Part shown: positions 306 through 57,567 of the stretch, piece after piece
Position numbering within the stretch: position 1 is the stretch's first letter
Layout: every line of letters starts with the position of its first letter
DNA from: Candidatus Eiseniibacteriota bacterium
Lineage (GTDB): Bacteria; Patescibacteriota; Microgenomatia; Levybacterales; UBA12049
DNA length: 58,299 nucleotides
Assembly: GCA_035631115.1 (NCBI GenBank)
Contig: DASQJJ010000051.1
Span: 1 to 58,299 of the forward strand
Direction: 5' to 3'
Program-made: the position numbers and the translations under genes
The notes under the pieces: model-generated
Seen by the model: the letters and a program-made list of their open reading frames with translations, nothing else
Told to the model about the DNA's origin: nothing
Database searches by the model: none

Positions 306-324
306 AGCTTTCAGATATCAGCTT

Positions 325-696
325 CTAGCTTCCATTTTCCCTCATTTTCGTTTTCATAAAATTCAACATTCGCGCCACTTCCTGTAAAACAGCGTCTACC
401 TTTATATAGTCTTTCATCTGTGCAAACTTTAACTCTTTTGCAATGATTACTTGAGTTTCTAGTTCTAACGCTGATCCATAAGCAATTGAATAGAACTGTG
501 CATAATCCTTTAATGATTTTCTTCCAGAACCTTCTGCAATATTAGACGGAATAGATATCGCAGCTCGTCTCATCTGTGAAGTTAATCCATATATTTCTTC
601 TCTAGGAAATTTACTTGTTAAAATGTAAATTTCTTTTACTAGGTCTATGCCTTTCTGCCAAACTATTAGTTCTTTATAAGATTTTATGTAGGTCAT
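325..696 (-). CDS. four-helix-bundle protein (23S rRNA intervening-sequence protein family)
   Basis: YKELIVWQKGIDLVKEIY...RRAAISIPSNIAEGSGR...ALELETQ is typical of this family. Start trimmed to ATG 696 (MTYIKSYKEL) because the track extension to 762 reads through a heptad stop-array spacer. Confidence 0.75.
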   Translation of the reverse strand: MTYIKSYKELIVWQKGIDLVKEIYILTSKFPREEIYGLTSQMRRAAISIPSNIAEGSGRKSLKDYAQFYSIAYGSALELETQVIIAKELKFAQMKDYIKVDAVLQEVARMLNFMKTKMRENGS

Positions 697-807
697 AACT
701 AAGAGCTGATAGCTGACAACTGGTAGCTGTTCTATCGTAGCAAAAAGAGAGGCTCCATACAAACAAATTTGTAAAAAACCTCTCTTGCCTATTCAAGAAA
801 GCAATTA

Positions 808-1228: not shown

Positions 1229-1933
1229 ATGAATCAATATGTTGTTGGCCATAGGGGTGCTGCAGGACTTGCTCCAGAAAATACAATTAAAGCTTTTAAG
1301 ATAGGCTGCGAGAATAATGCTGACGTAGTAGAATGCGATATTCATCTTACTAAGGACGGGAAGCTTGTTGTCTTTCACGATGGCACTTTGGATAGAACGA
1401 CAAATGGCAAAGGATGGGTAAAAGACTATACCTTTGCTGAGTTACGAGAATTAAATGCTGGGGATGGAGAAAAAATACCAACACTTGAGGAAGTTATTGA
1501 GACAGTTATGGATTATAAGAAAAAACTTATTATCGAAATAAAAGCAGAGGATGAAATTATTGCGAAAAATCTAACCAACGCATTTTGCACTTTTCTTTCA
1601 GAGCATACCGAGATAATTCCCAATATTTACGTGCATTCTTTTTGGCATCATGTTGTAAAAGAAGTAAAGGAAAAATTTCCAGATGTATCAACATTTGTCC
1701 TCATGATGATTGGACTACCTCCTAAGGAAATGCTTCAATTTATTCTTGATGCAAAGGCAAACGGGGCATCCATAGAGCAGGATTATATTTCCCCAGAGTT
1801 GGTAAGGCTTGCCCATGAGAATAATCTAGAACTTAATGCTTGGCTACTTAATAATGAGAATGAATTTAAGAGAATGAAGGATTTAGGAGTGGATGGGTTA
1901 ATTACTAATTTCCCCGATAGATTTCACTTATAA
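1229..1933 (+). CDS. glycerophosphodiester phosphodiesterase family protein
   Basis: GHRGAAGLAPENTIKAF...ECDIHLTKDGKLVVFHDGTLDRTTNGKG are GDPD-family motifs. Confidence 0.75.
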   Translation: MNQYVVGHRGAAGLAPENTIKAFKIGCENNADVVECDIHLTKDGKLVVFHDGTLDRTTNGKGWVKDYTFAELRELNAGDGEKIPTLEEVIETVMDYKKKLIIEIKAEDEIIAKNLTNAFCTFLSEHTEIIPNIYVHSFWHHVVKEVKEKFPDVSTFVLMMIGLPPKEMLQFILDAKANGASIEQDYISPELVRLAHENNLELNAWLLNNENEFKRMKDLGVDGLITNFPDRFHL

Positions 1934-3163
1934 ATTTTCTCCAACAACTGCGCGGAATTCTCGAATTGCAGTAACTTTTACTTCTCCAGGAATTGCAAGA
2001 GATGCACTTATTTCATCCCGTAATTTTTTGGCAATAATAATTGTCTGAGCATCATCTAATTTTCCAGGATTTATAATAACACGTAATTCTCTCCCTGCTT
2101 CAAATGCATAGGCATCTTCTACGCCTTCATACTTTTTCGCCATATCTTCCATTTCCTTCAGTCTATTGGCATATTTTTCTACATCTTCATACCGTGCTCC
2201 TGGTCTACCACCACTTGCTTGGTCTGCAATATGTACAATGACTGATTCAACACTAGTAAATGGTTTATCCTCGTGGTGCTGTGCAACAGTATCAATGATG
2301 GCATCTGGAAGACCAAATCTTTTTAATACTTCTACGCCCAACTTTACATGACTTCCTTCTCCTTCTACAACTTTTCCAATATCATGGAGAAGTCCTCCAA
2401 GTCGTACTACATCGGCATCTGCACCGATTTCTTGTGCAATGCCAACGGCAATTTTACTTACTTCTAGAGAATGGGTAATAAGATTTTGTCCATATGATGT
2501 ACGGAACTTAAATCTTCCAAGCATTTTAATAAGGTCTACTGGCAACTTAAATACTCCTGCCTCATGAGCCAACTGCTCACCTTCCTGAAACATAATTTTA
2601 TCCAACTCTGCTTTTGTCTGATTAACAACTTCTTCAATTCTAAAAGGTTGAATGCGGGTATCCTTAAGAAGTACCTCGAGTGCACGTCTGGCAATTTCGC
2701 GGCGTACACTATCGAAAGATGAGAGACGAATAATTCCTTCTTCGTCCAAATCGATATCTACTCCTGTTGCGCTTTCGAATGCACGAATGTTGCGTCCTTC
2801 TTTTCCAATAATTCTTCCCTTAACATCTTCACTTTCTACACGAATAATAGAAACAGTAAATTCTGCAACATAATTAATTGCACCGTGCCGCATTGCCTCT
2901 ACAATTACTTCTTGTGCTTTTTTGTCTGCAGTCCTCTTTGCTTCTTCTTCTCTTTCGCGGATAAGTTTGGCAACACTTGATGCCTCGGATTTTTCTGTCT
3001 CATCAAGAAGCGCTTTCTTTGCTTCTTCCTCTGTCATGTGGGAGAGTTTTTGGAGCTTGTCTCTATATTCTTCTTTTTGCTTGTCTAAGCTTTCTTTTAA
3101 CTCGTCTAATTTTTCCTGTTTTTCAAGGAGTTTTTTTTCTAAATCTAATGCGTCTGATACCAT
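1928..3163 (-). CDS. rny: ribonuclease Y (short form, no N-terminal membrane anchor)
   Basis: Coiled-coil N-terminus, KH domain (GRIIGKEGRNIRAFE) and HD domain (LLHDIGK...AQHHED). An in-frame stop lies just upstream of 3163. Confidence 0.85.
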   Translation of the reverse strand: MVSDALDLEKKLLEKQEKLDELKESLDKQKEEYRDKLQKLSHMTEEEAKKALLDETEKSEASSVAKLIREREEEAKRTADKKAQEVIVEAMRHGAINYVAEFTVSIIRVESEDVKGRIIGKEGRNIRAFESATGVDIDLDEEGIIRLSSFDSVRREIARRALEVLLKDTRIQPFRIEEVVNQTKAELDKIMFQEGEQLAHEAGVFKLPVDLIKMLGRFKFRTSYGQNLITHSLEVSKIAVGIAQEIGADADVVRLGGLLHDIGKVVEGEGSHVKLGVEVLKRFGLPDAIIDTVAQHHEDKPFTSVESVIVHIADQASGGRPGARYEDVEKYANRLKEMEDMAKKYEGVEDAYAFEAGRELRVIINPGKLDDAQTIIIAKKLRDEISASLAIPGEVKVTAIREFRAVVGENL

Positions 3164-3791: not shown

Positions 3792-3868
3792 AGGAATACT
3801 ATAGAATATCCAATGTCAAATATCCAATATCCAATGTTAAATAATTATTTGCCGTGTATAATGTGAAT

Positions 3869-5956: not shown

Positions 5957-6027
5957 CGGGGACTAGTTTAACGGTAGAATGCGCGGCTGGGGGTCGTGCG
6001 GCTGGGGTTCGACTCCCCGGTCCCCGA
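5957..6027 (+). tRNA. tRNA-Pro (anticodon GGG)
   Basis: Hand-drawn cloverleaf. Acceptor stem is CGGGGAC/GTCCCCG. Anticodon stem is CGCGG/TCGTG with two G-U pairs. Loop CTGGGGG puts GGG at 5989..5991. T arm is TGGGG-TTCGACT-CCCCG, the discriminator is A, and no CCA is encoded. Confidence 0.8.
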
Positions 6028-11619: not shown

Positions 11620-11665
11620 AAATTAGTTATTAGCTGCTAGCTACTAGTTGCTAGTTATATTTGAA
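11620..11665. repeat. heptad TAG array spacer
   Basis: TAG at 11624, 11631, 11638, 11645 and 11652, exact period 7. Confidence 0.8.
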
Positions 11666-12157
11666 CTACTTACTAGATGCTGACGCACGTCCTTTCTTTG
11701 TTTTCACTTCTTTTTTTACTTCTACTTTCTTAACAGGTTTCTTTGCAACTACTGCTTTAGCTACCTTAACTTTTTTTTCTGCTACTGGCGCAACTGCTGC
11801 ACTTGTTTTGTCTACCCATTCAATTATAGCCATTTTTGCATTGTCTCCAAATCGTTGTCCTACTTTTACAATTCTTGTGTATCCGCCTGGTCTATCTGCA
11901 AATCTTTTTGACAAGTCATTGATAACTTTCTTATATGCAACAACAGAAAGATATGGCTGCAGTAAAGATTCTGCATTTTCACCTTTTCTTTTTGCTTTTG
12001 TTACTAATTTTTCTACCTGACCTTTTATTGCTTTTGCCTTTTCCTCTGTTGTTTGGATTGACTCCTTTAGAACCAAATCAGTCATAAGCCCTTTTAACAG
12101 AGCTTTTCTTTCGTTTGCATCTCTTTTAAATTTTCTTCCAAATACTTGCTTTCTCAT
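11666..12157 (-). CDS. rplQ: 50S ribosomal protein L17 with K/A/V-rich C-terminal tail
   Basis: GRKFKRDANERKALLKGL...GGYTRIVKVGQRFGDNAKMAIIEWV. Confidence 0.9.
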   Translation of the reverse strand: MRKQVFGRKFKRDANERKALLKGLMTDLVLKESIQTTEEKAKAIKGQVEKLVTKAKRKGENAESLLQPYLSVVAYKKVINDLSKRFADRPGGYTRIVKVGQRFGDNAKMAIIEWVDKTSAAVAPVAEKKVKVAKAVVAKKPVKKVEVKKEVKTKKGRASASSK

Positions 12158-13171: not shown

Positions 13172-13183
13172 AAACGTTTATGT

Positions 13184-13212
13184 ATTATACCAGCTATCAA
13201 GGCTGGTTTCAA
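13184..13212 (-). promoter_or_regulatory. candidate internal promoter TTGAAA-N17-TATAAT upstream of rpoA
   Basis: Read on the minus strand: TTGAAA (13212..13207), 17-nt spacer, TATAAT (13189..13184), 12 nt before ATG 13171. It could be a chance match in AT-rich DNA. Confidence 0.3.
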
Positions 13213-13224
13213 CAAGGAATATGA

Positions 13225-13839: not shown

Positions 13840-13921
13840 ATATTCCTTTCAGTCAAAATTAAAGATGAAAAATTAAATCTAAAAATATTTTTGAGATCTC
13901 ATTTTTGATTTCTAATTTATT

Positions 13922-14780: not shown

Positions 14781-14845
14781 ATTTTTAGTTATCAGTTTTC
14801 AGTTTTCAACTTTCAGTTAACTGAGAGCTGACAACTGGGCGCTGA
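14781..14845. repeat. bipartite heptad stop-codon array spacer
   Basis: Minus-strand TAA/TGA at 14785, 14792, 14799, 14806 and 14813. Plus-strand TGA at 14822, 14829 and 14843, with TGG at 14836. All are on a 7-nt period. Confidence 0.8.
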
Positions 14846-15179: not shown

Positions 15180-15224
15180 TTACTCTGAGTATTATATCAG
15201 GTTGAGACTGAATCGGCAATAGCC

Positions 15225-20362: not shown

Positions 20363-20752
20363 CTACCAAATCTTAAAGAGGACTTCTCCTCCTACACCTT
20401 TCTTGACAGCTTCTCGTCCTGTCATAACACCTTGATTTGTTGATACAACTGTTGTGCCAAGACCTCGTCCAACAAGTCCAACAGTATCTGTTGCGCCTGC
20501 ATAGACTCGAAGAGATGGCTTTGAGATAACAGCAACATCGGTAAATGCCGCCAAACGCTTTTCAAAGACAATTGTTGCAACGAGAGATTTCTTCCCATCT
20601 TTACTTTCTTCCTTAATACTTCCCAACATATGCTGCTTTACCAAAACCTGTCCTATTGCCTTATTTAATTTTGAGTATGGCAACACAACTTCTCTTCGGC
20701 GAGCGAGTGCTGCGTTTTTTAACCGTATAATAAAATCTGCTACTAAATACAT
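20363..20752 (-). CDS. rpsH: 30S ribosomal protein S8
   Basis: DFIIRLKNAALARRREV...GGEVLFKIW. Confidence 0.95.
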   Translation of the reverse strand: MYLVADFIIRLKNAALARRREVVLPYSKLNKAIGQVLVKQHMLGSIKEESKDGKKSLVATIVFEKRLAAFTDVAVISKPSLRVYAGATDTVGLVGRGLGTTVVSTNQGVMTGREAVKKGVGGEVLFKIW

Positions 20753-20826
20753 AATAATCAGTTACTAGTTTCTAGTTACTAGCTTCTAGTTCATTAAGAA
20801 CTGAAAGCTGACATCTGAAAGCTATT
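20753..20826. repeat. eight-unit heptad stop-codon array spacer
   Basis: TAG (within CTAG) at 20766, 20773, 20780 and 20787. TAA at 20795. TGA at 20802, 20809 and 20816. Confidence 0.8.
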
Positions 20827-21012
20827 TTACCAGGTTGCCTTTAGAACTCCTGGTAATTCTCCTTTCTGTGCTAATTCTCTAAAACACATTCTGCAAAGTC
20901 CAAATCTTCTCATGTACGAGCGCGCTCTTCCACAGATTTGGCATCTGTTTCTGTCTCTAGATGTAAATTTTTGTTTGTGTAAAAATTTTACGACACTTGA
21001 TTTTTTTGCCAT
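20827..21012 (-). CDS. rpsN: 30S ribosomal protein S14, zinc-binding type Z
   Basis: CQICGRARSYMRRFGLCRMCFRELAQKGELPGVLKATW. Confidence 0.9.
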   Translation of the reverse strand: MAKKSSVVKFLHKQKFTSRDRNRCQICGRARSYMRRFGLCRMCFRELAQKGELPGVLKATW

Positions 21013-21018
21013 ATATAA

Positions 21019-21558
21019 TTACTTTTGAAAAGGCATTCCTAATGCCCGCAAAAGCGCTACTCCTTCCTCTTTTGTCTTACCTGATGTTGTAATTGTTACT
21101 TGAAGTCCTTGGACTTTATCAAATTTACCTGGGTCAACTTCTGGAAAAACAGTAAATTCAGAAATTCCAATTGTGTAATTTCCTCTGGTATCAAAGCTAT
21201 CTTTTCCAACTCCTCGAAAATCTTTTAATCGAGGCATGACAACATCAACCAATTTTCCGTAGAAATCATACATGCGATTTCCCCGCATGGTTACGACCAG
21301 GCCAATTTTATCACCTTCTCTAAGCTTAAAGCTAGAGATAGATTTTTTGGCACTGGTTACTTTTGGTTTTTGTCCAGTAATCAATTCCATAACTTTTGTT
21401 GCAACTTCTATATTTTTCTTGTCTGCAACTGCATTTCTTACACCCATATTAATAACAATTTTTTTCAATTTTGGTACTGCCATGATATTTTTAATTTTTA
21501 ATTCTTCTTGTAATTTCTTTACTACCTCTTTGAGATATTTTTCTTGTATATATGTCAT
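21019..21558 (-). CDS. rplE: 50S ribosomal protein L5
   Basis: Canonical position. Contains PKLKKIVINMGV...FRGVGKDSFDTRGNYTIGI. ATG 21558 lies 1 nt after the rplX stop. Confidence 0.9.
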   Translation of the reverse strand: MTYIQEKYLKEVVKKLQEELKIKNIMAVPKLKKIVINMGVRNAVADKKNIEVATKVMELITGQKPKVTSAKKSISSFKLREGDKIGLVVTMRGNRMYDFYGKLVDVVMPRLKDFRGVGKDSFDTRGNYTIGISEFTVFPEVDPGKFDKVQGLQVTITTSGKTKEEGVALLRALGMPFQK

Positions 21559-27378: not shown

Positions 27379-27405
27379 ATTTAATACTTATTTGAAATTG
27401 CCAAC

Positions 27406-27428
27406 AAAAAAGTGGCTACCAGGCCACT
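27406..27428 (-). terminator. terminator-like hairpin just upstream of rplC
   Basis: Minus strand reads AGTGGC-CTGGTA-GCCACT followed by TTTTT, about 25 nt before the rplC ATG. Confidence 0.55.
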
Positions 27429-27583
27429 CTACTCTTGAGGGTAACTGAAGCTACTTTTACGATCGATCCGTTTTCTTAAGTCGAATCATGTTGACAAAAC
27501 ATTAGTATTGTATCAGAAAGGACTAAGGCACGCAATAGGCAGGGGTATCTGTCAAAAATTGGTCATTTTCCTGACAAATCTTT

Positions 27584-27826
27584 ATGTTGACCAAAAGAAA
27601 AAAGATAGTAGAATGGGATTCTATGATTATAGAAGATGAAAAAGAAGACCAAAGCACCCAACCTGCATCGTCTCCTTCCTCCAAAAAACAACCTAAAAAT
27701 CAGGGACAGGCAGAACAACCCTGGCAAGAAAGAGTAAATGGACAGCCTCAAGTACCGTGGAATGGAGACAGTCTTGGTAGAGCAAGAGGATTTCACCCAG
27801 CCCGCGGAAATCCCCTTAGGAGATAG
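27584..27826 (+). CDS. hypothetical Q/P/R-rich small protein (80 aa)
   Basis: ORF track only. No clear promoter or SD. Its 3' end overlaps the convergent phosphatase gene. Confidence 0.3.
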   Translation: MLTKRKKIVEWDSMIIEDEKEDQSTQPASSPSSKKQPKNQGQAEQPWQERVNGQPQVPWNGDSLGRARGFHPARGNPLRR

Positions 27827-29080: not shown

Positions 29081-29104
29081 GAAATGATTATAGCAGAAGG
29101 CATT

Positions 29105-29124
29105 AAAAAACCGCCTGGTGGCGG
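29105..29124 (-). terminator. rho-independent terminator after rpsJ
   Basis: Minus strand reads CCGCC-ACCA-GGCGG-TTTTTT. The 23-mer at 29102..29124 is identical to 31366..31388. Confidence 0.7.
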
Positions 29125-29159
29125 GTATTTCTGAATTTCTGAATTTCTGAGTTCCCGAA

Positions 29160-29468: not shown

Positions 29469-29495
29469 ATGTCTTTTAAAGAACTAATGAATGTA

Positions 29496-29524
29496 ATTAT
29501 ACTATAACTGACTTAGCTTGTCTA
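29496..29524 (-). promoter_or_regulatory. candidate rpsJ promoter TAGACA-N17-TATAAT
   Basis: Minus strand: TAGACA (29524..29519), 17-nt spacer, TATAAT (29501..29496), 27 nt before the ATG. Confidence 0.45.
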
Positions 29525-29527
29525 GGC

Positions 29528-31309: not shown

Positions 31310-31368
31310 AGTAAAACTATATAATTATCTATTATTTTTTGCAAGAGTGAGTATGGTCCGCAGGTATT

Positions 31369-31388
31369 AAAAAACCGCCTGGTGGCGG
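31369..31388 (-). terminator. rho-independent terminator after the tuf/small-ORF unit
   Basis: Same CCGCC-ACCA-GGCGG-TTTTTT sequence as at 29105..29124. Confidence 0.7.
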
Positions 31389-31416
31389 CATCTCCTCAAT
31401 AATGGACGATTAATTA

Positions 31417-38065: not shown

Positions 38066-40204
38066 TTACTCTACTCTTCCAGTAAAGGTGGATTTGGCAA
38101 GAAGGTCTTGGACAATATTTCGTGGTACTGGCTCGTAATGACTTGGCTCCATGTAGTACGATGCACGACCCTGAGACATACTTCTAATTTGTGTTGCATA
38201 TCCAGAAAGCTCTGAAAGTGGCACCATAGCCTTAATAATTGTTGCTCTACTTCTCTCTTCTGTACCAGAAATTTGTGCTCTTTTACTAGACAAATCTCCA
38301 ATAATATCTCCCATAAATTCACTTGGAGTAGTGACTTCAACCAACATGATAGGCTCCAAAAGTTGCATATCGGCTTTCTTGGATGCATTTTGGAAAGCCA
38401 TAGATGCAGCAATCTTAAAGGCAACATCGGAAGAATCAACATCATGATACGATCCGTCATACAGTGTAACTTTGGTATCTACAATTGGATAGCCCAAAAG
38501 CACACCATTTTCTTCTGTTTCCTTAACGCCTTTTTGAACAGAAATAATAAATTCTGCTGGAATTGCTCCTCCTTTAATAGCATTTACGAATTCGTTTCCT
38601 TCTCCTCGTGGCTTTGGCTCCAGCTTAAGATAGCAGTGACCATATTGTCCTCGTCCTCCGGATTGTCGAATATACTTGCCTTCTGCAGACGCTTCTTGTC
38701 CAATAGTCTCTTTGTAAGCAACTTGTGGTGCGCCAACATTAGCCAAGACGCCAAATTCGCGCTTCATTCTGTCTACCATAACTTCCAGCTGCAATTCTCC
38801 AATTCCAGAAATAATGGTCTGGTTGGTCTCGTGATTGGTCTTAACAGTAAAGGTTGGGTCTTCTTCTGTTAAGCGCTTTAATGCTAAGCCTAATTTTTCT
38901 TGGTCTGCTTTTGTCTGAGGCTCAATTGCCAAAGAAATAACAGGCTCTGGGAAAGTAATTTTTTCAAGGACAATTGGGGATTTATCATCACACAAAGTAT
39001 CTCCTGTTATGGTGTCTTTAAGTCCTACAAGTGCGACAATTTCTCCTGCATATGCTTCTTTAATTTCTTCTCTGGTATTTGCATGCATAAGAAGAATACG
39101 ACCAACACGCTCAGTAATATTTTTTGTAGAGTTATAAATATAACTTCCTGCCTCTACTTTTCCAGAATACACTCTAAAGTAGGTAAGTTTTCCAACATGT
39201 GGGTCTATTTGGATTTTAAATGCGAGTCCAGACAATTTTTCTTCAGGGACTAATTTTCGTACTTCTGGAGCTTCTGTCTTAGGATTAATTCCCTTAAGCT
39301 CTGCCAAATCCATTGGAGAGGGTAAATAATCAACAACAGCATCAAGAAGTGGTTGTACTCCTTTATTTCGAAGGGATGTACCTGCATAAATTGGTACTAA
39401 TTTATATGCAATAACTGCTGCGCGAAGCGCTTTTTTAAGCTCATCTACTGTTGGCTCTACACCACCAAGATATTTTTCCAAAAGCACATCGTCTGTTTCT
39501 GCAATTTTTTCTATTAATTTTTGTCTATATTCCTCTACCTGGGCCTTCATATCCTCTGGGACTTCATCTGTTGTGTCAAATGATGCACCTAAATCGTCTG
39601 AGTGCCATTTTAAAGAAGTCCTGGTAAGTAAATCCACATTACCAACATAGGTATTTTCTGACCCAATTGGGAGTACCATAATTGCAGGATTTGCACCAAG
39701 TCTATCCTCGATAGATTTTACTGTTGCCAAAAAGTCTGCACCCAACTTGTCCATTTTATTTACAAAACAAATTCTTGGTACTTTATATTTGTCTGCTTGT
39801 CTCCAAACAGTCTCTGACTGTGACTGCACACCTTCTTCTGCATCTAAGACAGTAATGCCACCATCGAGGACTCTGAGAGAGCGCTCTACTTCTGCAGTAA
39901 AGTCCACATGCCCTGGTGTATCGATAATATTAATTCTATACTGATTTTCCTGACCAGCTTTGTCTCCCGTATGAGTCCAGAATGCAGTGGTGGCAGCAGA
40001 CACAATAGTAATACCTCTTTCTTTTTCCTGCTCCATCCAGTCCATTTGGGTATTTCCTTCGTCGATGTCTCCAATTTTGTAGGTACGTCCGGTGTAGTAG
40101 AGGATTCTTTCTGTTGTGGTTGTCTTGCCTGCGTCAATATGCGCAATAATACCAATATTACGAATCTTGTCTAGTTCTGCGTGTCGGTTAGCTGAATCGG
40201 CCAT
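38066..40204 (-). CDS. fusA: elongation factor G
   Basis: [37 protein letters not shown] and NKMD. Start set at ATG 40204. The track extension to 40261 was rejected. Confidence 0.95.
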
Positions 40205-40274
40205 AAAAGTAAAAAATTCTAAGCTCCAAAAACCAAATCCCAAACAAATCACAAGTACCAAAATTCAAAATGTT

Positions 40275-40298
40275 TAGGGTTTAGAAATTAGGATTTAG
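40275..40298. repeat. heptad TAG array upstream of fusA
   Basis: TAG at 40275, 40282, 40289 and 40296. Confidence 0.7.
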
Positions 40299-40344
40299 GA
40301 TTTACAACTTTAGTATACCATAAATTTTGAAGAGAGAAAAGAAG

Positions 40345-56719: not shown

Positions 56720-57446
56720 ACACTACTATTACAGTAAAAAAAGGTTGTTAAGCCCAACTTTTTTTGTCCGTGCATTTGGATTTGTACTTTTTAGTCTTGG
56801 CGTCTGTGTAATTGTGTATATTTTTAGTCCACTGGTTATTTGGCAACTAACCCTTGCTCCTGCGTTTGCCAACTCTCAGATTACTGCCCCTATTCCACAA
56901 CGGTCCCTTCTTACTCCAATGACAATTAAAAGTCTCGTGACAACATCTTTACAAAATGTTGCAGGAGTAGACTATACAGATGCATCGAATTGGTTTCCTG
57001 GATATACCATAGGAAAAGGAGCACCAAGTGTCCCTTCATATTTTCTCAGTATTCCAAAGTTAGGAATTTCTAATGCGTATGTCTCAACTGGAGACATAAA
57101 TTTAGCAAGCCATTTAGTAAGTCTTGGCGGGACGTCAATTCCTCCAGAAAAAGGAAACACTGTTATTTTTGGTCATTCAACACTTCCCCAACTATTCAAT
57201 CCAAAAGACTACAAAACAATTTTTGCCAATATGTATAAAATGCAAATAGATGATACCTTTATGACGACAGTAAGTAATGTTGTGTACACATATAAGATTT
57301 TTTCCATAACAGTTGTCGACCCAGAAGATACATCGGTACTTGCCCAGACATATGATGATAGTTATGTTACGCTTATTACCTGTACTCCACCTGGTACTAT
57401 TTGGAAAAGACTTATCATAAAAGCACGATTACAGAAATTAAACTAG
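56706..57446 (+). CDS. sortase family transpeptidase
   Basis: N-terminal TM, catalytic FGHS, and VTLITCTPPG (TLxTC). It overlaps the upstream gene by 14 nt. Confidence 0.7.
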   Translation: MLMSKHYYYSKKRLLSPTFFVRAFGFVLFSLGVCVIVYIFSPLVIWQLTLAPAFANSQITAPIPQRSLLTPMTIKSLVTTSLQNVAGVDYTDASNWFPGYTIGKGAPSVPSYFLSIPKLGISNAYVSTGDINLASHLVSLGGTSIPPEKGNTVIFGHSTLPQLFNPKDYKTIFANMYKMQIDDTFMTTVSNVVYTYKIFSITVVDPEDTSVLAQTYDDSYVTLITCTPPGTIWKRLIIKARLQKLN

Positions 57447-57469
57447 ATTCAAGATTTAAGATTTAAGAA

Positions 57470-57567
57470 GGGGTGGCGCGAGTGGGGGACCCACGAAACC
57501 TTTCTGCAGTGAATGAAATGAACGAAGCAGGTTTTGGGGGTGACGAGTCGACAGGACCCCGACAATA
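57470..57567 (+). promoter_or_regulatory. GC-rich structured leader candidate upstream of the phosphorylase gene
   Basis: Two similar ~28-nt GC boxes (GGGTGGCGCGAGTGGGGGACCCACGAAA and GGGTGACGAGTCGACAGGACCCCGACAA) flank a central hairpin AAACC..TGC..GCAGGTTT. Confidence 0.35.

Follow-up and report, generated by a model that had tools for sequence, protein, structure and literature searches.

The 58,299-nt stretch of contig DASQJJ010000051.1 analysed here (hereafter, the window) is a Patescibacteria (CPR) chromosome segment, and its nearest public loci lie in Patescibacteria MAGs with an S8 identity of 57-96%. An S10-spc-alpha ribosomal-protein superoperon occupies its minus strand. Two spacers of this operon were the subject of a preliminary description, which named the flanking genes correctly (rpsH, rpsN, rplM and rplQ). 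Because all four are on the minus strand, expression runs from rpsN to rpsH and from rplQ to rplM:

20827-21012, minus strand: type-Z S14 (rpsN)
20363-20752, minus strand: S8 (rpsH), with its ATG at 20752
11666-12157, minus strand: L17 (rplQ), 163 aa
11191-11619, minus strand: L13 (rplM)

A look-up returned no exact-protein record for the S14 of the window. The C-terminal extension of L17 gives a partial, below-cutoff match to the “sunset domain” variant of L17 in NCBIfam. The genome is SD-poor: SD-like tetramers were found in 20 of 65 window genes, mostly embedded within the upstream ORF. In many genes that open a transcription unit, a TATAAT box stands only 6-12 nt upstream of the ATG (13172-13224, 15180-15224, 29081-29159, 29469-29527 and others), a distance that implies leaderless or near-leaderless mRNAs.

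The rpsN-rpsH spacer contains one copy of an imperfect palindrome built from heptads. On the sense strand it reads TAA-AATAGCT TTCAGAT GTCAGCT TTCAGTT-CTTAATG-AACTAGA AGCTAGT AACTAGA AACTAGT AACTGAT-TATT-ATG, with the following parts:

20753-20826, minus strand: rpsN-rpsH spacer, 74 nt; a single imperfect palindrome made of heptads, ARCTRRN family
20799-20826, minus strand: reverse (5') mRNA arm, AATAGCT TTCAGAT GTCAGCT TTCAGTT; three CTGA units on the plus strand
20781-20809, minus strand: central hairpin predicted by folding; 11 pairs, one 1x1 mismatch, 5-nt loop, AGCUUUCAGUUC-UUAAU-GAACUAGAAGCU
20758-20792, minus strand: forward (3') mRNA arm, AACTAGA AGCTAGT AACTAGA AACTAGT AACTGAT; four CTAG units and one exact TAACTGA

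The forward arm stops 5 nt short of the rpsH ATG (20752). All 13 stop triplets of the preliminary description are exactly where it placed them (TAG at 20766, 20773, 20780 and 20787, TAA at 20795, and TGA at 20802, 20809 and 20816 in this spacer; TAG at 11624, 11631, 11638, 11645 and 11652 in the rplQ-rplM spacer), and the four TAGs of the rpsN-rpsH spacer each lie within CTAG as claimed. The single eight-unit array that it saw here is, however, really two. Between 20787 and 20795 the spacing is 8 nt instead of 7, which indicates two arrays of opposite orientation (20758-20792 and 20799-20826) flanking a 6-nt centre (20793-20798). Read along the mRNA, three reverse units (nnnnCAG) precede five forward units (AACTAGN/AGCTAGN/AACTGAN). 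The plus-strand TGA units, formerly counted as stops, are antisense to the operon; the mRNA there reads CUUUCAG/AUGUCAG and has no phased stops. With the TAA unit, half of the stops claimed for this spacer are on the antisense strand. A mini-ORF of 6 codons in the spacer (ATG TCA GCT TTC AGT TCT TAA) was considered and set aside, as it is not conserved in a homologous copy in the related locus L018.

Short tandem repeats are classic misassembly sites and the source is a soil metagenome of low depth (about 5x), which speaks for an assembly or chimera artefact in this metagenome-assembled contig. Nevertheless, an independent Logan contig of the source run (X1) spans 20690-21039, including the spacer and both gene ends, with 0 differences, and related copies are present in other assemblies (L018). 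Since the independent contig agrees at every position, we conclude that the array is not an assembly artefact, and give that explanation next to no credence. A contig from a rhizosphere run (X2) contains the 32-nt array 20760-20791 with 1 mismatch, in an unrelated context and beside three AACTCGA units.

One sense-strand consensus, A-R-C-T-R-R-N, fits five loci of the window, namely the rpsN-rpsH spacer and the following four:

11620-11665, minus strand: rplQ-rplM spacer, 46 nt; forward units only, AACTAGC AACTAGT AGCTAGC AGCTAAT AACTAAT, then TT, ATG
14781-14845, minus strand: rpmJ-rpsM spacer, 65 nt; second palindromic ARCTRRN copy, with a predicted hairpin at 14792-14845
696-735, plus strand: ARCTRRN array in reverse orientation, AACTAAG AGCTGAT AGCTGAC AACTGGT AGCTGTT
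306-337, minus strand: ARCTRRN array, AGCTAGA AGCTGAT ATCTGAA AGCT and ATG, running up to the start codon (ATG, 305) of a gene for an ABC ATPase

Each unit keeps a 5-nt core and leaves 2 positions free to vary. The three-unit motif has 13 matches in the window, at these 5 loci, versus 0.01 expected, and a 19-mer is common to three of the five loci with at most 3 mismatches; the reverse arm 20799-20826 shares 17 of 19 bases with 14819-14837 in the rpmJ-rpsM spacer. The argument that unit sequences differ between loci and hence were not recently copied is not supported by this comparison: the two loci from which it was drawn share the consensus and the near-identical 19-mers with three others. 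The rpsN-rpsH spacer matches the family profile with E=8e-18, a value that includes its own contribution as one of the six sequences building the profile, and the rplQ-rplM copy matches with E=4e-5. In the latter, the first two TAGs (11624, 11631) lie in TTAG and the last three in CTAG.

ARCTRRN arrays end 0-5 nt before the ATGs of rpsH, rpsM, rplM and the ABC ATPase gene, and the starts preceded by ARCTRRN arrays have no GGAG, GAGG, AGGA or AAGG (SD) within the preceding 20 nt. The array at 696-735 is immediately upstream of the ATG (696) of a minus-strand gene for a four-helix-bundle protein, while the first unit of the array at 306-337 provides the TAG stop of the upstream gene (325-327).

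Folding predictions differ among the copies. For the rpmJ-rpsM copy, a long hairpin interrupted by internal loops at regular intervals is predicted (-19.7 to -21.2 kcal/mol, z -4.5 to -5.0). The fold of the whole rpsN-rpsH spacer is not significant (z -1.3 to -1.6 versus shuffles); dinucleotide shuffles yield weak z-scores where the arms are A-rich/U-rich. The rplQ-rplM copy lacks a second arm and any hairpin (fold z about 0). A search for a consensus hairpin with covariation in the six palindromic copies was set aside because their alignment proved too slippery; it gave only 10 pairs, 2 of them with compensatory changes.

None of the rpsN-rpsH, rplQ-rplM and rpmJ-rpsM spacers matches an Rfam family at the gathering score; by the same covariance models the sole match of the window is a tRNA-Pro (5957-6027). 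No ORF crosses the spacers, and the rpsN-rpsH spacer was checked on both strands. A consensus scan (sigma-70 hexamers, GC stem and T-run) gave no convincing promoter or terminator in the array spacers and nothing in 20753-20826. Its matches there are a 9/12 promoter-like sequence at 14809-14781 and a terminator-like sequence at 11636-11655 on the plus strand, antisense to the operon. Elsewhere in the window the same approach located strong promoters, at rpsJ, rpoA and infA.

Heptad periodicity is not confined to this family. The window has 8 period-7 regions (at least 19/28 identities at lag 7), whereas 100 dinucleotide shuffles average 0.17 (maximum 2); control lags of 4-6 and 8-11 give 0-2 regions, and lag 12 also gives 8. 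TRF reports period 7/14 arrays in the window as well. CTAG is under-represented (80 versus 175 expected), and 7 of the 80 fall within the rpsN-rpsH and rplQ-rplM spacers. Other heptad arrays are as follows:

13840-13921, minus strand: rpsK-rpsD spacer, 82 nt; a different heptad/14-mer palindrome, then a conserved SD-containing tail GACTGAAAGGAATAT-ATG
40205-40344, minus strand: fusA 5' region; TAAATCC-type heptad array (40267-40311) and a G/U-rich inverted partner
3795-3850, no strand assigned: heptad array of unrelated units (AATATCC/AATGTCA) between the divergent recX and peptidase S51 genes, with no in-phase stop triplet
57433-57472, plus strand: unrelated heptad array of AGATTTA type at the end of a sortase gene

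The mechanical ORFs at 38066-40261 and 325-762 have wrong starts. The correct initiation codons are ATG 40204 for fusA and ATG 696 for the four-helix-bundle (TIGR02436) gene; the additional N-terminal residues of both ORFs come from translation of heptad arrays (LPVVSYQLLV). Heptad inserts thus shift start-codon calls, which matters for annotation.

The tail of the rpsK-rpsD spacer recurs: (TTAC)GACTGAAAGGA(GTTT)-ATG, with an SD, follows variable heptad/octad palindromes in the window (13840-13921) and in the related loci L003 (11374-11464), L006 (1196-1300) and L018 (8182-8244). Inserts with the GACTGAAAGGA tail stand at four different ribosomal-protein junctions in four genomes, and the exact 11-mer is expected about 0.1 times in the DNA searched.

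We compared the three ribosomal junctions with those of 21 related loci, in which genes were delimited by homology. The rpsN-rpsH, rpmJ-rpsM and rplQ-rplM spacers of the relatives are 0-19 nt long, with the exception of L006 at rpsN-rpsH. The relatives whose S8 is 95-96% identical, with a 4-fold-site identity of 0.84, have 6-7 nt between rpsN and rpsH, and contigs from two other soil and rhizosphere runs have TACAGAT in place of the 74 nt. All remaining relatives have 4-19 nt except L006, which carries a 70-nt palindrome of different heptads (GTTATGA.../...CATAACT). The rpmJ-rpsM spacer is 2-12 nt and the rplQ-rplM spacer -1 to 3 nt in relatives, and both are expanded only in the window. Conversely, some junctions that are tight in the window contain inserts in the closest relatives, such as one of 54 nt at rpsH-rplF. 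No target-site duplication was apparent when filled sites were compared with empty ones. The 20 relatives compared refute the idea that stop phasing is conserved between orthologous junctions. The preliminary description had named two outcomes that would count against its reading. One is what we observe, as the spacers of relatives at these junctions are short and aperiodic; the other is not, as the periodicity lies far above the expectation for AT-rich DNA.

Further copies of the family were found at other junctions. Locus L018 (GCA_964598355.1, S8 84% identical) has four palindromic ARCTRRN copies, at rplB-rpsS, rplV-rpsC, rpsC-rplP and rplR-rpsE. All four of these junctions are tight in the window, and none of the 8 occupied ribosomal-protein junctions is common to both genomes. 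The rpsN-rpsH insert of the window and the rpsC-rplP insert of L018 are identical at 55 of 69 positions (about 80%, z 15.5), while 4-fold sites of the genes flanking the inserts are only 0.54 identical (floor 0.37). Among the loci searched, the ARCTRRN profile matches only the window and L018. A second example is the rpsN-rpsH family of L006, which recurs at another junction in L017 with 53 of 65 positions identical. Because a copy of about 80% identity is present at a non-orthologous junction and the junction is empty in close relatives, we conclude that the element was copied, and recently. No transposase or RAYT-like gene was seen in the 58 kb (50 window ORFs scanned), and the family core had no match in viral contigs. 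Given the lack of a transposase in 58 kb and of a target-site duplication, it is only the distribution of the copies that points to mobility.

Tandem heptads could also arise in place, by replication slippage of a 7-nt seed, a unit length that the polymerase would favour, with neither copying between loci nor function. Heptamers are reported to be the most abundant class of long simple-sequence repeat in most prokaryotic genomes examined, which was ascribed to polymerase slippage (Mrazek 2007, as related in PMC4679880), and the unrelated units of several arrays in the window and relatives (AATATCC, TTTAGGA, TTAGAAA) would be expected of such a process, as would near-perfect tandem units such as those at 6839-6893 of L002. 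Slippage alone, however, does not produce matched inverted arms, and it leaves unexplained both the identities between different junctions and genomes (17/19 and 55/69) and the shared 3' tails. Furthermore, the ancestral 7-nt spacer TACAGAT has no resemblance to the unit. We therefore regard purely local slippage as improbable.

Expanded, heptad-periodic junctions are general among the relatives. Junction lengths are bimodal, with 226 of 325 being at most 12 nt, and 78 unique spacers fall between 25 and 150 nt. The best period is 7 in 38 of these 78 (versus 10% under the null, P=1.5e-17), and 28 have a lag-7 identity of at least 0.5 versus 1.2 expected. Many consist, by inspection, of a unit block and then an inverted block, and half of the period-7 spacers of at least 40 nt fold with z<-2 versus shuffles. 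At orthologous junctions, heptad inserts are 79-90% identical (L017/L019/L021 at rpsS-rplV; L019/L021 at rpsC-rplP and infA-rpmJ; L001/L021 at rplC-rplD) in genomes whose 4-fold sites are saturated or nearly so (0.38-0.48, floor 0.37), which indicates constraint on the repeat sequence. Orthologous copies are no more similar than non-orthologous ones, so this similarity may reflect only a constrained family consensus. No clean 7-nt indels were seen among orthologous inserts of the relatives; comparison of the window with contigs of related strains showed presence or absence of the whole insert.

A different intercistronic motif, TTCGRCAAGCTCACTATAAAT, occurs mostly at rpsH-rplF (L003 10388-10443; L005 1014-1067; L011 2807-2860 and 500-526; L017 1517-1541 and 6430-6468). 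It is absent from the window, and 50 of 54 positions are identical between L003 and L011 though 4-fold sites are 0.44 identical. It may be a conserved regulatory hairpin or internal promoter.

The stop triplets themselves were central to the preliminary description, which argued for selection on phase and stop rather than recent copying. The 7-nt phase is indeed strongly non-random here and in relatives, and there is a weak signal of stop-keeping; the copying and its recency, and the fact that stops are not strictly kept, speak against the rest. As a barrier, a stop every 7 nt would cover all three frames (and both strands where it lies in CTAG) and halt read-through, frameshifted or antisense translation between cistrons. 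Consistent with this, the T-R-R position of ARCTRRN is TGA 23, TAG 17 and TAA 17 times, that is 57 stops, against 2 TGG where 8.1 are expected (Fisher P=7e-4, a value that ignores shared descent). Sense-strand stops in period-7 spacers number 271 versus 241±7 in shuffles, a 12% excess that other spacers do not have, and 30 of 38 period-7 spacers have stops in all three frames versus 24.9±2.6 expected; these enrichment statistics are inflated by the shared descent of units. One unit even serves as an actual gene stop (325-327). Against a barrier, the upstream genes already end in stops of their own, and spacers of 0-7 nt suffice in relatives. The rpsC-rplP copy of L018 has CGAG where the window has CTAG, which indicates that stops are dispensable and not conserved despite the kept period and flanks. 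On the mRNA, phased stops are missing from the 5' arm. The commonest phased triplets across all period-7 spacers are AAA, TTT, ATT and AAT, with several heptad families phased on AAA, TTT or ATT and not on stops, and control triplet sets score 23-25 versus 37. A stop barrier as the selected function is thus hardly likely. We read the stop triplets as making the element tolerable in any frame and not as its purpose.

Taken together, these results lead us to favour, with moderate confidence, a dispersed and tolerated repeat with side effects at the RNA level. The 74-nt rpsN-rpsH spacer is in this account a recent copy of a small dispersed intergenic repeat of about 45-75 nt, and the rplQ-rplM and rpmJ-rpsM spacers are further copies. 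A typical element comprises a block of reverse units and then a block of forward units of ARCTRRN heptads, together an imperfect palindrome. Copies may move between gene junctions by copy-and-paste or recombination, with slippage of units in addition, and would persist only where a handful of bases separates one gene's stop from the start of the next. The inserts thus belong to dispersed families that keep their consensus beyond neutral divergence while single insertions turn over. The phased stops would follow from the C-U-R-R of the unit consensus and be harmless in any reading frame, rather than the primary selected function.

The element is presumably transcribed inside the ribosomal-protein operon, and most likely it is a dispersed repeat co-transcribed as a hairpin and an SD-less leader; a search for RNA-seq runs found none. 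The mRNA would fold into a hairpin with small internal loops at regular intervals, and an A-rich, SD-less and unpaired tail would extend from it to 3-5 nt before the ATG. The insert puts 46-74 nt between the stop of the upstream gene and the start of the downstream one and would so break the usual stop/start coupling; in annotation, such inserts would mark places where translational coupling has been lost. At rpmJ-rpsM, the insert displaces the ancestral SD-like AAGG by 65 nt in comparison with relatives. As S8, S13 and L13 are essential, we infer that the A-rich heptad tail must itself support initiation. The hairpin might, more speculatively, stabilise the polycistronic mRNA or direct its processing; an RNase Y gene is present at 1928-3163.

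The conservation of the consensus above the synonymous rate and the avoidance of TGG could mean a sequence-specific function and not merely a tolerated repeat. In such a cis-regulatory RNA, the heptads would be a platform for a protein that reads single-stranded RNA in steps of about 7 nt and sets or regulates downstream translation. Candidate readers are a cold-shock-domain protein, S1 or a HutP-like reader of UAG-N4-UAG, with rRNA pairing as an alternative, and the hairpin would modulate access. A HutP-type antiterminator site consists of three or more UAG spaced by 4 nt on RNA. The UAG-N4 spacing of the arrays, which equals that of the HutP site, is found four times in rpsN-rpsH and three times in rplQ-rplM; the homologous L018 copy has GAG in place of UAG, and the scanned ORFs contain no HutP family match. 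Arrays that end 3-5 nt before the starts of SD-less genes, a unit with a conserved 5-nt core and two free positions, a family consensus about 80% identical while 4-fold sites are near saturation, and orthologous-junction inserts 80-90% identical in other relatives at a 4-fold identity of 0.38-0.48 all argue for this reading. It is also the favoured hypothesis for TAACTGA repeats (PMC4679880), and deletion of heptamer repeats altered reporter output in Nostoc (bioRxiv 10.1101/2022.06.06.494920). It is at odds with the closest relatives, which have no insert at any of the three essential-gene junctions, with the reversed array (696-735) before its gene, with the UAG to GAG change in L018, and with the analysis of the window, which identified no candidate binding protein. 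We consider dedicated regulation unlikely, though less so than a stop barrier or local slippage, and retain the tolerated repeat as the preferred account.

The closest known counterpart is the TAACTGA direct repeat of marine Beggiatoaceae, some cyanobacteria and Bacteroidetes (MacGregor 2015; PMC4679880). Those repeats are intergenic, forward and SD-less, end 1 to a few nt before starts, lie in part within operons for ribosomal proteins, and are missing at the same sites in close relatives; binding by S1, Csp or CsrA was proposed (PMC4679880). The window has TAACTGA at 20758-20764 and at the centre of the rpmJ-rpsM palindrome (14813-14819 on the minus strand, 14818-14824 on the plus strand), and its other units are the one-base variants TAACTAG, AAACTGA and TAACTAA. 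Its arrays are similarly intergenic, forward (one, 696-735, is reversed), near starts and SD-less, with stops in all forward frames, sites in a ribosomal-protein operon and empty sites in close relatives. The window contains no exact tandem TAACTGA and no tandem pair with <2 mismatches, and single TAACTGA occurs 7 times versus 10 expected. In contrast to the earlier repeats, the units here are degenerate and usually paired with an inverted array in a 60-75 nt palindrome (MacGregor reported 1 inverted set in 170), whole elements recur at non-orthologous junctions, and the Patescibacteria/CPR host is not on MacGregor's list (PMC4679880). The palindromic cassette form and the CPR host are new relative to PMC4679880, and a literature search found no report of such repeats for Patescibacteria. 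MacGregor saw no mechanism of spread for TAACTGA repeats (PMC4679880). Exact (TAACTGA)x3 occurs in 106 IMG/VR viral-contig stretches, and in one of these (L096, 3250-3425) a tandem array of about 25 copies stops 2 nt short of an ATG. Phages carrying the classical repeat could be a route of its spread.

Heptamers of the cyanobacterial STRR kind were reportedly described by Mazel in 1990. Like STRRs and other long simple-sequence repeats (Mrazek 2007, as cited in PMC4679880, for the latter), the window arrays are tandem 7-nt units, intergenic, of many unit types per genome and lineage-specific, and they consist of head-to-tail units of 5-11 nt longer than chance; such repeats are described, however, as plain direct arrays and not as palindromes that replace tight operon junctions. 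REP/REPIN elements (Bertels & Rainey 2011, PMC3116915) are short dispersed extragenic imperfect palindromes of two inverted halves, in species-specific families, often intra-operon and co-transcribed as hairpins. The rpmJ-rpsM copy (z -4.5 to -5) and the 11-bp centre of rpsN-rpsH are predicted hairpins of this type, while rplQ-rplM lacks a second arm. REPINs differ in that they are not heptad-built and are tied to a RAYT transposase (PMC3116915), of which none was seen among 50 window ORFs. The elements also differ from MITEs, which have terminal inverted repeats and a target-site duplication, as filled and empty sites here give no duplication. TIGR or CRISPR-like arrays (PMC12045711) were considered and rejected: the units are 7 nt, with no spacers and no Tas/Cas gene. 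Heptamer SSRs in the promoter/5'-UTR of Haemophilus HMW1A tune expression, with 5'-UTR RNA structure and RNase III processing being important (PMC12721329, PMC8262952), and a TTTTGAT heptamer SSR is found at Vibrio ctxAB (bioRxiv 10.1101/2021.05.14.444153). These share with the window arrays 7-nt tandem units upstream of genes, but they act through phase variation in copy number at the promoters of surface/virulence genes, whereas the window arrays lie between essential cistrons and no copy-number variation was observed.

It is possible, if doubtful, that Patescibacteria carry a hitherto undescribed class of junction-adapted plug-in heptad palindromes of 45-110 nt that hop between the stop/start junctions of essential operons. 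They would be tolerated because one end provides stops in every frame and the other an initiation-competent leader (SD-less in ARCTRRN, with an SD tail GACTGAAAGGAG in the second family), each genome having its own family and the consensus being held by a sequence-specific trans-acting partner.

Heptamer repeats close ahead of start codons have lacked an explanation since TAACTGA was described in 2015 and, for the cyanobacterial STRR, since 1990. A TAACTGA-type unit is now placed in a distant, genome-reduced phylum, organised in palindromic cassettes that are gained and lost at operon junctions between near-identical strains, with a family consensus that outlasts synonymous-site divergence. 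The 74-nt and 7-nt rpsN-rpsH junctions form a natural filled/empty pair before an essential gene, and such pairs make the effect of the repeat on translation and mRNA fate directly testable.

Several minor features were noted in the same DNA. Upstream of rplC, 27379-27815 is an unusually long non-coding stretch (437 nt) with a terminator-like hairpin at 27409-27430 and no Rfam leader. The spacer downstream of rpsJ (29081-29159) combines a period-8 array (ATTCAGAA x3), a clean terminator (CCGCCACCAGGCGG and T6) and a TATAAT 7 nt before the next ATG; its terminator stem is seen again at 31310-31416. Finally, L002 (CAYOZJ010000010.1), titled “uncultured Gammaproteobacteria”, has a ribosomal-protein operon whose S8 is 88% identical to that of the window, and its bin label is probably wrong.
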